This document shows positions 31,941 to 41,918 of a stretch of DNA of 64,000 nucleotides, in pieces (position 1 is the stretch's first letter; each line of letters opens with the position of its first letter). The notes beneath the pieces are model-generated. The model had not been told where the DNA came from and did no database searches. It was given only the letters and a program-made list of their open reading frames with translations. The DNA comes from Escherichia phage LAMP. The DNA lies in the sequence record MG673519.1; one strand, 5' to 3'. The position numbers and the translations under genes were made by a program.

Positions 31941-32422
31941 TTAGTGTGTATGCATCCAGTTTAACCCAATCTGACAATCAGAAGCCAGAGGACATTCCAT
32001 GTTCAAGTACTCACCAGCCTTCTTAACACAAAGCTCGGTGTACTCTTTGAGTTTCTGTACATCATTACGGTTCACTGAGAACTGGCCCTCATCGTGCATA
32101 TCAATTACCTTAGCACAACGAACTCCATCTTTCTCAATCCACTTGTTAAGGAACATCATAGCATATTTCATAACAACAGCACCAGCACATTGTAGGAGTG
32201 TGTTAAGGGCTTTATGAACCATAACCTTACCAGTGGCATCCCGTCTCATTGTAATCTTACGACCATCAACGCCAATCAAATACCCTTGAGCAGCTTTCTC
32301 TGTCATACGATCAATGAGGATTGCAATACAAGGATTCTCTGCCAAGAAGCGTGCTCGCATCACTGAACCTTCGTCAGCTCCACCACCTACGATTGAACCA
32401 AGCTTAGCATCACCTGCCCCAT
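31941..32422 (-). CDS. DNA polymerase (family A, T7 gp5-like), exon 2
   Basis: Frame open upstream of the annotated Met and encodes GAGDAKLG (motif B continuation); contains motif C VIDMHDE. Confidence 0.8.
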
Positions 32423-32726
32423 CAATAGTTCAAGCAAAGGCGCTACTCTTTGCTCCGTTCTCTTATGAACTGCTTACAGTTTCCTGTAAGATCGGACTAT
32501 ATCTTCATCTCCACCTTTACGTGCTGAGAGACAGGCGCTTCCGTAACACTTGTTACGTACTCCCTTCCGGGATAGTCTCTGAACTTTCCGTGACACAAAC
32601 TTTTCTACATAGATCATTGATGTTTATGTCACGGCTTAGCTGCTGATTGGCATATCTTTCGACTTAGCTTTCCAGCAATTCACCTGTTTTGCTTCTGCAC
32701 ATTTCTATGCAGTGAACCAATTATTT
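32423..32726 (-). mobile_element. group I intron (about 304 nt, no ORF) interrupting the DNA polymerase gene
   Basis: Exon 1 stops one codon after TFIYAFN; joining 32727 to 32422 restores NYGAGDAKLG; 5' exon ends in U, intron ends in G, GGUU near intron 5' end can pair with exon AACU. Confidence 0.7.
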
Positions 32727-34089
32727 AGTTAAAGGCATATATAAACGTCTTCGCATTATCACGAGTAGGAAGACCAGCAAGTTTCTGGTTGTGGGAGTGG
32801 ATATCACCTTCAAGAAGGATATCACGATACATAATAGCAGAAGCTAAACCACGTTCTGCCAGAGCTTTCTTAGCTGGATTATTCTCTTCGATTGCTTCAG
32901 CAAGCATATCCCTACACTCTTTAATGAGGTAGTGAGCGAGCATACGAAGTTCAAGTCCAGAACCATCATACCCTAAGAATACTTCTTTACCAGCGGGTAT
33001 GTAATATTTGTAAGCACCTACAGGCTTATCTTTCTTCCCCGGCTTACCTTTCTCGTAAATTACGTTAGTACCTTTTCGTATATAACAACCATCAGGAACA
33101 ACGTTAGTAATAACGAAAGGACGAGAGTGATCACTGTCTGAATTATAGTCAGACTCAAACAAACTGCGACACTCATGACCAAACAAACCACGGGAGGGAA
33201 TATTAACCACGATACGATGTTTGAATCGAAAAGTTGGCGTAGCGCAGCTGTTAGCTTCTGCCGAAAGTTTACCATCTTCGCGTTCCTTTGCTATGAGTCC
33301 ACTGATAAGACCTAGCCTGTGAGCCGCTACAACGCGCCTCTTAAGCAAACTTCCAACACTCCCTAGCTCGCCCCCTAACCCTTCTTCAAGAGTCTCCTCG
33401 AGGTTTGTAGGAGCTGTAGGCCACTTGTTTGAGGTAGCTAGTGCTATCTTAATCTCATCAAACGTGATAGGTCTACGTCGGTTAGGGTTTAAACCTAAAC
33501 CAAACACATAAGCCTTCATATAGTTCTTAGTCTTAAACCTAAAATGCTTCTCTAAGAACCTCCTAATATCTGCGTCAACCATCTCGGCTGTCTGCTTCTG
33601 TTTAGCATTACCTCGCATCCAAGCTGAATACCACGCTTGGTATGTTCCATACTTTCGTATATCTTTCTTGATTTCAAAAGTATTCCAAGGTTTCTTTGAT
33701 ACGTTAAACTCTGGAGGAAGAAAACCCTCATCCATAAGGGCTTCTTTAACTCGTGCATCTTTCGATGGGTCAAAGTCCACGTATTCAACACAGGTGAATG
33801 CTCCACCAATGTCTTCTCTCTTAAGGCCAACTCTATCACAATAGGCTTGAGGCCACTTCTGTAAAGCTCCAGACTTCTTAAATGGCTTCATATAAGTAGA
33901 GCCATCTAGTCTCATCTTAGGTAAGAGAGGGATCAGTTCTTTGTCGATATTAACAATAATCTCTTTAAGGAGGTGAACATACCACCGAGCATTTCTTCGG
34001 TTGAAACTCACTCCGTGCTTCGCTTGCTTAGAGATTATATCAGCGACAGTCATCTCTGTCAAAAATGGGAGAGCGTCCGGGTTGCTCAC
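32727..34089 (-). CDS. DNA polymerase (family A, T7 gp5-like), exon 1 (polymerase domain)
   Basis: Motif A GYDGSGLELRMLAH and motif B RDNAKTFIYAFN; colinear with T7 DNA polymerase from the end of its exonuclease domain. Confidence 0.85.
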
Positions 34090-34105
34090 TTTATACTCCT
34101 TTAAA

Positions 34106-34528
34106 TTATTGGTAAAGTAAATCTGTAAATGCTTGGTTGTCTTCTACTACATCTAGCAAGGTTGCTTCGTTACTATAAGACCTAACTGTCCCGTTGACAA
34201 CTGTCCGAGTAGGAGAGGGAGGTGGTGTATGGTTAGCTCTAGCTTCACGAGGTTGCTCTCGTACTAAATGAGCCATAGCCATTTGGTTAGCGACTTCTTC
34301 TCTTTCTCGAATAGCTCTCTGAATATAAGCTAGCTTCATGCCCCAAGCTTCTTCAAATTCTTGAGGATGTTTGTCACTGATAACCACATATTGACGTTCA
34401 GGGATACCAGAGCGAATCTCTGATAAGAGTTCACAGAACAAATCCAGTTCGTGTTCAGTGAGATTCATTTCGATATCATCCCACTTGAGAACTAGGAAAC
34501 GGTTTTGATATCTAGTCGGTAATGGCAT
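34106..34528 (-). CDS. hypothetical protein
   Basis: 140-aa ORF. Confidence 0.35.
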   Translation of the reverse strand: MPLPTRYQNRFLVLKWDDIEMNLTEHELDLFCELLSEIRSGIPERQYVVISDKHPQEFEEAWGMKLAYIQRAIREREEVANQMAMAHLVREQPREARANHTPPPSPTRTVVNGTVRSYSNEATLLDVVEDNQAFTDLLYQ

Positions 34529-39991: not shown

Positions 39992-40000
39992 TCTTATTCC

Positions 40001-41362
40001 TTAGTTATTTGTTTCTGTGTCAAAAGAGATTCCACGACCCGCTTCATCGGCAAACCGAACTGTACGGGTTTGAGGTTCTAATACTTCAGGGTTATTAGCA
40101 ACAAAGCGATCAGCGAGGCTGCGACTGACGGTCTCAGCAAGTTCCTCATGAGAAGGAATATCAAGACTACCTACCACATCTTGGGCCACACCTTCATCAG
40201 TCCACACAGCCCTAGCAGGTGCGTTGATATCACCAACAGCGAAACCCTGACCAGAGAACTGGTGACGGCTAACAGTCAAACCATTTGATTGACCATTAAA
40301 ACGTCTAGACAACCACCGCTCAAATGAATCGCCAGTAACACCAAGAGCTTCTTCAAAAGATGTTCTACGAGTAGAGCTTAGATTTCGTGACTCTTGTGCT
40401 CTACGTCTTGCAGGAATTGCAAACACCCCCTCAATTGCATTGTGCCGATTAGGTTCATCTTCCCGACCAAGGAGATCACCTCCTGTATTAGTTGTTAAGT
40501 TTGTTAACCCTTCAGACCAATATGCACTAATCTGGCTAGAGCCATGAATGCTTGACATTAACTGAATCTCTTCATAAGGTATATCAAAGAATCGACTCAT
40601 ATCTCGGTTAACACAATACTGAGCACTTGTTGTGTCCTCAATAAGAGCAACCTGACCCCGTTCGTTGACCAGATGACTAACCGGCTGAGGTGTGGGAAGG
40701 TGTCGAGTTTGGGCCATGTATTGATATGCAGCTGCTGGAGAGGAAAATCTCAACACTTGCGAGTTAGGCCACTTCTTGTGAACATACCTGATTTCACGAC
40801 TAGAAACAACCACTGGACAAGGGGCGGTCATAGCCAAGTATCCATGAGGGGTCATGAATAAGTTATCAAGAGTCATCGCACCACGGCACATCATAGGAAA
40901 ATTATCCAATACCTCTTCAATAGAAGTAGGATAATTAAACATGAATTGGATACGAACACCATTCCACTGAAACTCAATAATATCAGTGAATGTTAATTGA
41001 GAACCCCCAGCATATGATTCGTTCGTAGCTTCAACAAGAAGAGATGAATACTCAATATCTTGTGATTCAAGCCATTCCTTCACATTGCTTTCAATCTCCC
41101 GTCCAAGCATTTGCCACTGCTCGGCTGGGATAAAGGTATTTCGAGTTCTTGGTGTTTGTCCTCTGACAATAAAGATATCAATATCATGTGGAGCTATGTT
41201 ATTAAGAACAGCATCACGAATAGCTCCACCAGTAATGATAGGGCAAATACCATCTGGAATCAAGTTGTTGTTAATCAACTGTTCAATGAAGTGACGACCA
41301 ACAGTGATATCAGGTTGTTGAGCAACCTTATCTTCAATTCGGTTAATCGGGATAACAATCAT
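40001..41362 (-). CDS. class II nucleotidyltransferase (CCA-adding enzyme / poly(A) polymerase family)
   Basis: ITGGAIRDAVLNNIAPHDIDIFI matches the GGxxRD...DxD head-domain signature; start set at ATG one nt after the upstream stop. Confidence 0.55.
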   Translation of the reverse strand: MIVIPINRIEDKVAQQPDITVGRHFIEQLINNNLIPDGICPIITGGAIRDAVLNNIAPHDIDIFIVRGQTPRTRNTFIPAEQWQMLGREIESNVKEWLESQDIEYSSLLVEATNESYAGGSQLTFTDIIEFQWNGVRIQFMFNYPTSIEEVLDNFPMMCRGAMTLDNLFMTPHGYLAMTAPCPVVVSSREIRYVHKKWPNSQVLRFSSPAAAYQYMAQTRHLPTPQPVSHLVNERGQVALIEDTTSAQYCVNRDMSRFFDIPYEEIQLMSSIHGSSQISAYWSEGLTNLTTNTGGDLLGREDEPNRHNAIEGVFAIPARRRAQESRNLSSTRRTSFEEALGVTGDSFERWLSRRFNGQSNGLTVSRHQFSGQGFAVGDINAPARAVWTDEGVAQDVVGSLDIPSHEELAETVSRSLADRFVANNPEVLEPQTRTVRFADEAGRGISFDTETNN

Positions 41363-41363
41363 T

Positions 41364-41918
41364 TTACATTTTCCAATATAATGAAGGTGGGTCGTAAGGA
41401 TCAAATCCTGTGAGTTCACACAAGTATTTATAAACCTTAACAGTTAAGTTAACGTCCTGTTCACAGTAAGTAAACATATCTTCAGTGAAAGCATCCCATG
41501 CTTCCTCTTGCTCACCGTAATCTCCTTTAAGTTCCCCCAAGAACTCACCCCATTGCTTCAAACCGTGACCTCTTGGGCCATGTCTAGGGTCGCCTTTCGG
41601 ATACTCAGGACTGTCACCAATACGATCAGGTTTAAGATATCGACTAAGACACAGAGTGTCGAAGACGTTAAAATGATATTTAATCAGATTGGGATATATT
41701 TTCTTCAGAGCACAAAGGTCGAAGTCAATAATGTTATGGCCCACGAGCACATCAGCTTCTGTAAGTTTACGAATCCCATCTTCAATTTGGTGAGGCCGGT
41801 AGCCCCACCTTTCACCAGTTTCAACATCGAAAATGTAAATACACCATACTTTAGTTATATCATCGTACAGTGCGTTACTTTCGATATCAAATGCAAACAC
41901 TTTCTTTTTCTTTACCAC
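41364..41918 (-). CDS. DNA polymerase 3'-5' exonuclease domain encoded as a separate gene
   Basis: [36 protein letters not shown] align with the N-terminal exonuclease domain of T7 DNA polymerase; ORF ends where the polymerase domain would begin. Confidence 0.8.

Follow-up and report, generated by a model that had tools for sequence, protein, structure and literature searches.

Does a T7-like DNA polymerase still work as one enzyme when its proofreading domain and its polymerase domain are encoded by two genes lying 7 kb apart? The question is raised by Escherichia phage LAMP (sequence record MG673519.1), of which a stretch of 64,000 nucleotides (nt), hereafter the window, was analysed. A 3'-5' exonuclease gene at 41364-41918 and a polymerase gene at 31941-34089, both on the minus strand, had been recognised there in an original prediction that left two possibilities, namely that the halves assemble in trans or that the exonuclease protein has an independent role. 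The evidence presented here favours assembly in trans. We consider it likely that the phage makes a T7-like polymerase of two subunits, the proofreading one being bound non-covalently, and that the messenger RNA (mRNA) of the polymerase must first self-splice. The split itself is already annotated and published: it was described in 2008 for phage phiEco32 (Savalia et al. 2008, as cited for phiEco32 in the paper on phage tf, PMC3517423).

A stand-alone exonuclease of the polymerase type

The open reading frame (ORF) at 41364-41918 is present as predicted and encodes a stand-alone protein of 184 amino acids (aa) from a GTG start. Its translation matches the Pfam family PF01612 (DNA_pol_A_exo1) with an E value of 2.8e-9 and 37.5 bits, against a curated cut-off of 23.6. 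When it was compared with all PDB sequences, the only matches were four T7 DNA polymerase sequences, covering gp5 residues 3-182 with an E value of 2e-11. The DEDDy motif set is complete, with Exo I DxE, Exo II NxxxD and Exo III YxxxD. The active-site residues of Exo I (D11, E13), Exo II (H61, N62, D67) and Exo III (Y151, D155) are invariant in alignments of 27 and 45 homologues, and this holds in stand-alone and fused homologues alike. Judged from these residues, the 184-aa exonuclease looks active.

The AlphaFold2 model of the exonuclease reached a predicted local distance difference test (pLDDT) score of 94.5 and a predicted template modelling (pTM) score of 0.90. Its best 27 fold matches in the PDB were all T7 DNA polymerase, with E values from 3e-11 to 5e-9. 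The next matches, family B polymerase exonuclease domains and free DEDD nucleases, appeared at about 5e-6, which leaves a gap of about 5 orders of magnitude below T7 DNA polymerase. Together, the sequence and fold matches to T7 gp5 indicate that the 184-aa protein is a polymerase-type proofreading domain and not a generic nuclease. The original prediction had named a generic DEDD exonuclease as the outcome that would speak against it; this identity was ruled out, the PDB sequence matches being restricted to T7 gp5 and the top fold matches being specific to it as well.

Using the exonuclease as a tblastn query, we found it in 2,151 phage records. Among the distant matches listed, it coincides with the 5' end of genes that are for the most part annotated as DNA polymerase, those of T7 and T3 among them. 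In the metagenome protein database, all homologues down to 35% identity are stand-alone proteins of 105-212 aa. The exonuclease is collinear with its phiEco32 counterpart, gp74, and is under purifying selection, with a ratio of non-synonymous to synonymous substitution rates (dN/dS) of 0.074 relative to that phage.

The polymerase gene and the position of the break

The polymerase gene, at 31941-34089 on the minus strand, has a GTG start at 34089 preceded by an AAAGGAG Shine-Dalgarno sequence. Its product matches PF00476 with an E value of 4.9e-23. With phmmer, the E value was 3e-33 for T7 gp5 versus 4e-6 for Klenow, and the matched stretches run from near gp5 residue 290 to residue 704. The criteria used for a T7-like enzyme were motif A D..SGLELR, motif B R..AK...Y....YG and motif C HDE. 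In alignment with T7 gp5, the polymerase motifs read GYDGSGLELRMLAH, RDNAKTFIYAFNYGAGD and MHDEGQ, and they are invariant in 57 homologues. A tyrosine occupies position B3 of motif B, where KTFIYAF aligns with KTFIYGF of T7; the same tyrosine is stated for cluster #5 of the family A polymerases (PMC10201439). On these sequence features, the protein is assigned to the T7-like subfamily of family A.

The spliced polymerase counts 614 aa, is collinear with phiEco32 gp53 and is also under purifying selection (dN/dS 0.030 relative to phiEco32). It is identical at 607 of 614 positions to DNA polymerase P0051 of Shigella phage SGF2, and this 99%-identical protein served as proxy for the structural model (pLDDT 90.7). 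The top 27 PDB matches retrieved by Foldseek with the P0051 model were all T7 gp5, with E values of about 2e-24, followed by Bst Pol I at 5e-15.

To locate the break point, the exonuclease and the polymerase of the window were joined end to end and aligned with two unsplit polymerases, T7 gp5 and that of Vibrio phage CHOED. In this multiple alignment, the end of the exonuclease ORF and the start of the polymerase ORF both fall inside the exo/pol linker of gp5, in agreement with the claim that the exonuclease ORF ends where the polymerase domain should begin. The N-terminus of the polymerase, SNPDALPFLTEMTVADIISKQ..., begins within this linker, and at the break the polymerase sequence "PFLTEMTVADIISKQAKHGVSFN" is aligned with "EAVDIEHRAAWLLAKQERNGFPFD" of T7. 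The two ORFs tile T7 gp5, with nothing lost or duplicated at the break. The exo-less polymerase of a LUZ24-like Pseudomonas phage starts at the same alignment position and has several insertions in common with the window polymerase. T7 gp5 uses the host thioredoxin via a 76-residue loop. In the window polymerase, residues 64-140 align weakly with gp5 residues 290-362, and this segment, the putative counterpart of the thioredoxin-binding loop in the thumb, is shorter than that of T7.

A perfect sigma-70 consensus (TTGACA, 17 nt, TG-TATAAT; 12 of 12 positions) lies at 34034-34062 on the minus strand, within the first 55 nt of the polymerase ORF. The site is on the coding strand and is identical in phiEco32. 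As it coincides with the conserved peptide LTEMTVADII, coding constraint alone could have produced it, or it may be a genuine promoter within the gene.

A group I intron in motif B

The polymerase frame stops at 32725, within motif B ("...TFIYAFN*"), and a second ORF continues it at 32363-31941. The insert is identified as a group I intron by its match to the Rfam model RF00028, with 100.8 bits (gathering score 50), an E value of 6e-25 and coverage of model positions 1-253 of 253. Its bounds, 32423-32726 on the minus strand, were set by alignment to the phiEco32 gene, which has no intron; they correspond to 304 nt inserted in motif B between ...TFIYAFN and YGAGD.... The 5' exon ends with U32727 and the intron ends with G32423; the exon sequence AACU can pair with the intron sequence GGUU to form P1, the U of the exon end facing a G. 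Removal of the intron restores exactly the phiEco32 reading frame, at FNYGAG. Motif B is divided between the two exons. Exon 1 (32727-34089, minus strand) provides its first half, preceded by the N-terminal helix, the thumb and motif A. Exon 2 (31941-32422, minus strand) provides its second half, followed by the fingers and motif C (HDE), up to the C-terminal histidine.

Because the 304-nt intron interrupts motif B, the enzyme is encoded in three segments. The predicted location of the polymerase gene and its motifs A, B and C were thus borne out, but not its continuity. The intron most likely self-splices in vivo. A frameshift or a stop-codon read-through at 32725 was considered and ruled out, since the insert is a full-length group I intron that is absent from most relatives. 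For annotation, this means that gene callers report a shortened polymerase unless the intron is recognised.

This site is uninterrupted in most Kuravirus-like genomes, those of phiEco32 and Bas92 included. The same intron was found in Bas89 (99.7% identical) and in KBNP1711, both of which have an additional block of about 476 nt with an endonuclease ORF. In Bas89 (locus 1750-2274) this block carries a 174-aa endonuclease ORF and sits in the peripheral hairpin loop GTGACA...TGTCAC. The window copy has no such ORF, unlike the Bas89 and KBNP1711 versions, and thus represents a mobile intron in an endonuclease-free state. At that site, Bas93 and Bas94 have another, unlike insert, of 706 nt and with an endonuclease VII gene. 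In many more distant relatives, the polymerase products are about 450 aa long and end in the same region, which suggests that introns are frequent there. As a separate observation, the polymerase gene of the 7-11-like Salmonella phage PKM.Hi.22.6 (20446-22901) is also in two pieces, of 457 aa and 127 aa, with about 700 nt and small ORFs between them.

The window intron resembles the group I introns of other phage DNA polymerases, which lie in a conserved catalytic motif, are patchy among close relatives and often come with a homing endonuclease (earlier cases are cited in PMC10580990). A literature search combining Gordonclarkvirinae and introns found nothing, and the BASEL paper mentions only "homing endonuclease insertions".

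As this intron gives the locus one predicted self-splicing element, RNA trans-splicing or a split intein might be thought to join the halves into a single polypeptide. We regard this as effectively excluded. The exonuclease ORF has a normal stop codon past the last helix of its domain, and the polymerase ORF has start signals of its own, a Shine-Dalgarno sequence and a GTG codon. The single intron that Rfam detects in the 64 kb window sits inside the polymerase gene, no intein (Hint) domain was detected by Pfam in either protein, and seventeen ORFs lie between the halves.

Gene order, distribution and age of the split

By its sequence, the window is assigned to a phiEco32-like coliphage, a podophage of the Kuravirus group within the Gordonclarkvirinae. 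The stretch of about 11 kb around the split genes is 97-98% identical to Escherichia phages Bas92, Bas93 and Bas94 (BASEL) and 92% identical to phiEco32, and it matches 100 phage records. From about 26 kb to 64 kb, the window has genes on its minus strand only. The exonuclease gene is preceded by a T7-gp4-like primase/helicase gene (41912-43702, minus strand), which was recognised by Pfam DnaB_C (9.9e-11) together with a weak Toprim_2 match and is annotated as such in phiEco32 and Bas93. Read from the sequence, the primase/helicase stop overlaps the GTG start of the exonuclease by 7 nt (GTGGTAA, 41912-41918). Because of this overlap, the exonuclease occupies the exact site that the polymerase N-terminus has in the T7 order. 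The C-terminus of the primase/helicase (41912-42010) is an acidic tail with a terminal aromatic residue (...DGTSPW). It recalls the C-terminal tail of T7 gp4, which binds gp5/thioredoxin.

The distance between the exonuclease stop and the polymerase start, put at 7 kb in the original prediction, is 7,274 nt. The comparison with related phages that it called for yielded a conserved order, helicase, exonuclease, inserted genes and polymerase, in phiEco32, Bas93, PKM.Hi.22.6 and the LUZ24-like phage HTN1. The halves are about 6 kb apart in PKM.Hi.22.6 and about 1.7 kb apart, with six small ORFs between them, in HTN1. Vibrio phage CHOED has an unsplit, fused polymerase gene after its primase gene. 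A side observation concerns PKM.Hi.22.6, in which an endonuclease VII gene (13633-13998) is inserted between the primase/helicase and exonuclease genes.

Phage records with the polymerase number 98 at a threshold of 80% identity, and those with the exonuclease number 97 at a threshold of 60%. Beyond the Gordonclarkvirinae, the split was found in 7-11-like and LUZ24-like phages and in many metagenomic relatives. An exonuclease domain is lacking in 113 of the 120 best polymerase homologues; the other seven are fused proteins, all at the bottom of the ranking. A neighbour-joining tree with T7 as root was built from these top 120 homologues only, among them 97 full-length exo-less polymerases. The 97 exo-less polymerases formed one clade without any fused member in 52 of 60 bootstraps. 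This clade, the co-occurrence of the two genes and the low dN/dS values indicate that the split is old, stable and kept by selection, and this is the main argument that exonuclease and polymerase still work together.

The same data bear on the possibility that the split is an artefact or a sign of decay, whether by mis-assembly, by a sequencing frameshift or as a dying pseudogene fragment. Apart from the unusual layout, nothing speaks for it, and it can be dismissed for all practical purposes. The layout was found in about 100 independently sequenced Gordonclarkvirinae genomes, which also disposes of the sequencing artefact contemplated in the original prediction; both ORFs are intact and each has its own start signals, the catalytic residues are invariant, and dN/dS is 0.03-0.07.

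Probable assembly in trans and its alternatives

We propose that an ancestral gene for a family A polymerase of the T7 gp5 type was split in two, the break falling in the linker that joins the 3'-5' exonuclease domain to the polymerase domain. The exonuclease half would have kept the site of the polymerase N-terminus in the T7 order, right after the primase/helicase gene and overlapping it, and a block of nucleotide-metabolism and small genes would have come to separate the halves. The 304-nt group I intron would leave motif B of the mRNA before translation of the full-length polymerase. The two proteins would then re-associate non-covalently, the 614-aa subunit synthesising DNA and the 184-aa subunit proofreading. 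Physical association of the subunits and proofreading in trans are the most likely state of the enzyme.

Several points weigh against this proposal. Two strong terminator-like hairpins with T-runs lie in intergenic gaps between the halves, at 38282-38255 and 34851-34828 on the minus strand, so that exonuclease and polymerase may be transcribed separately and may differ in amount. The literature yielded no biochemical study of this two-protein enzyme. Finally, some fused polymerases are no farther from the window polymerase than the LUZ24-like exo-less ones. With fused polymerases equally near, and with a simple tree limited to the top 120 homologues, a single fission event is likely on the sequence comparisons, not proven. 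The promoter scan allows no conclusion on transcription units, because the total of sigma-70-like sites equals the shuffled expectation (28 vs 27.7).

The separation of the genes by 7.3 kb with terminator-like hairpins between them, and the translational coupling of the exonuclease to the primase/helicase and not to the polymerase, would also suit an independent 3'-5' DNase, active, for instance, in the breakdown of host DNA, in recombination or in repair, while the polymerase replicates without proofreading. We judge this unlikely. The nearest sequence and fold relatives of the exonuclease are exclusively polymerase-embedded exonuclease domains of the T7 type, not free DEDD nucleases, and throughout a large, old clade the protein is found together with exo-less polymerases. 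Moreover, the exonuclease domain is reportedly a structural requirement of family A polymerases (PMC10201439), and Kuravirus-like phages have a separate 5'-3' exonuclease, described for YF01 (PMC9965538) and not located in the window.

The separation might instead be functional in itself, a reading to which we give little weight. The exonuclease, being translationally coupled to the primase/helicase, would be a replisome-resident or exchangeable proofreader, serving polymerase molecules or exchanging between them. Alternatively, its level would be set independently of that of the polymerase and would tune the mutation rate of the phage. In either form, the thioredoxin whose gene lies between the two halves would be the processivity factor of a three-part enzyme. 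A phage thioredoxin has been hypothesised to act as a polymerase processivity factor in phage Privateer (PMC7881722).

Comparison with known systems

The closest known system is phiEco32, which has the same genes in the same order, both collinear with those of the window. The differences are the absence of an intron from the phiEco32 polymerase gene and a few small ORFs in the block between the halves. RefSeq describes gp74 of phiEco32 as "DNA polymerase exonuclease subunit", which "contains 3'-5' exonuclease domain", and states that gp53 "lacks 5'-3' and 3'-5' exonuclease domains". Bas93 is annotated likewise, its polymerase coding sequence being joined across the intron. The split was restated in papers of 2012 and 2023: separate polymerase and exonuclease genes have been reported for phiEco32 and the LUZ24 group (PMC3517423), and the same separation for all Kuravirus-like phages and for 7-11, Privateer, Vp_R1 and BUCT695 (PMC9965538).

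The LUZ24-like Pseudomonas phages, in which the genes appear as "DNA polymerase part I / II / III", resemble the window in having the exonuclease gene right after the helicase gene and an exo-less polymerase of the same exo-less clade, with the same start position and clade-specific insertions. Some members also have an intron or an endonuclease in the polymerase gene (PMC3517423). In contrast to the window, only about 1.7 kb and six small ORFs separate their halves, and their polymerases are about 39% identical to that of the window.

In the PolA of S-SBP1-like cyanophages, exonuclease and polymerase domains of a T7-like family A polymerase are likewise encoded by separate genes (Czernecki et al. 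2023, PMC10201439). There, AlphaFold2 predicts assembly in trans, and the predicted complex superimposes on the unsplit polymerase; family A polymerases are said in the same paper to need the exonuclease domain for stability. The S-SBP1-like genes are adjacent and overlapping and arose by a recent +1 frameshift, as an independent split (PMC10201439), whereas the halves of the window are far apart and belong to an older, broad clade. The window split is a functional analogue of this system and not a member of it. The S-SBP1-like case is called the first in family A polymerases in PMC10201439, where phiEco32 and LUZ24 are not mentioned.

T7 gp5 itself is the best sequence and fold match of both halves and agrees with the window in its position after the primase/helicase gene, in motifs A, B and C and in the motif B tyrosine that governs dideoxynucleotide (ddNTP) selectivity, but it is a single polypeptide of 704 aa. 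The alpha and epsilon subunits of E. coli Pol III also provide polymerase and DEDD proofreader as separate polypeptides, and this pair works as a complex (PMC2528190). Pol III belongs to an unrelated polymerase family (C), and the 184-aa protein has no equivalent of the dedicated C-terminal tail by which epsilon binds; the resemblance is functional only, by analogy.

Family A polymerases are usually single chains, their exonuclease domain being thought necessary for stability. A conserved natural two-subunit version would therefore be a useful system for studying how proofreading is coupled to synthesis, a point already made for phiEco32, for the LUZ24-like phages and, independently, for the S-SBP1-like cyanophages. 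To these, the window adds only another genome of the same layout and a homing-endonuclease-free copy of a mobile intron.

Genes between the halves and other features

The block between the halves (34106-41362, minus strand) was described from the ORF list, Pfam and the annotation of phiEco32 and Bas93. We counted 17 minus-strand ORFs in it, not fourteen as had been predicted. Five of the functions named in the prediction were recovered by Pfam, all on the minus strand: dCTP deaminase (dcd, 39458-39991), a ferritin/Dps-like protein (38290-38901), a 91-aa thioredoxin with a CAPC active site (37768-38043), ThyX (37096-37752) and PhoH (35584-36333). A sixth, the "CCA-family" nucleotidyltransferase, was left unsupported. 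The corresponding 453-aa ORF (40001-41362, minus strand) is annotated as nucleotidyltransferase in relatives and has no Pfam match at an E value of 0.01 or below. Its longest call, from GTG 41419, overlaps the exonuclease gene, and its likely start is ATG 41362, 1 nt past the exonuclease stop. No ribonucleotide reductase was found among the annotated genes of the syntenic phiEco32 and Bas93 stretches examined.

The block also encodes a 118-aa protein (36737-37093, minus strand) that is annotated as "DNA ligase" in relatives but is limited to the NAD+-binding Ia domain found in NAD-dependent ligases (ligase Nlig-Ia domain, PF22745, E value 2.5e-35). Having neither adenylation nor OB domain, it is another stand-alone enzyme domain in the module.

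Upstream of the primase/helicase gene, a gamma-glutamyl cyclotransferase gene was found in phiEco32 (locus 14888-14966) and Bas93 (14211-14289). HTN1 (locus 1642-2921) has genes for a gamma-glutamyl cyclotransferase and an ATP-grasp enzyme in the same place. The shared gamma-glutamyl cyclotransferase gene takes the synteny of the two split-polymerase groups beyond the replication genes. Elsewhere in the window, the sole tRNA gene, tRNA-Arg(TCT), is located at 56850-56925 on the minus strand, among early and middle genes.

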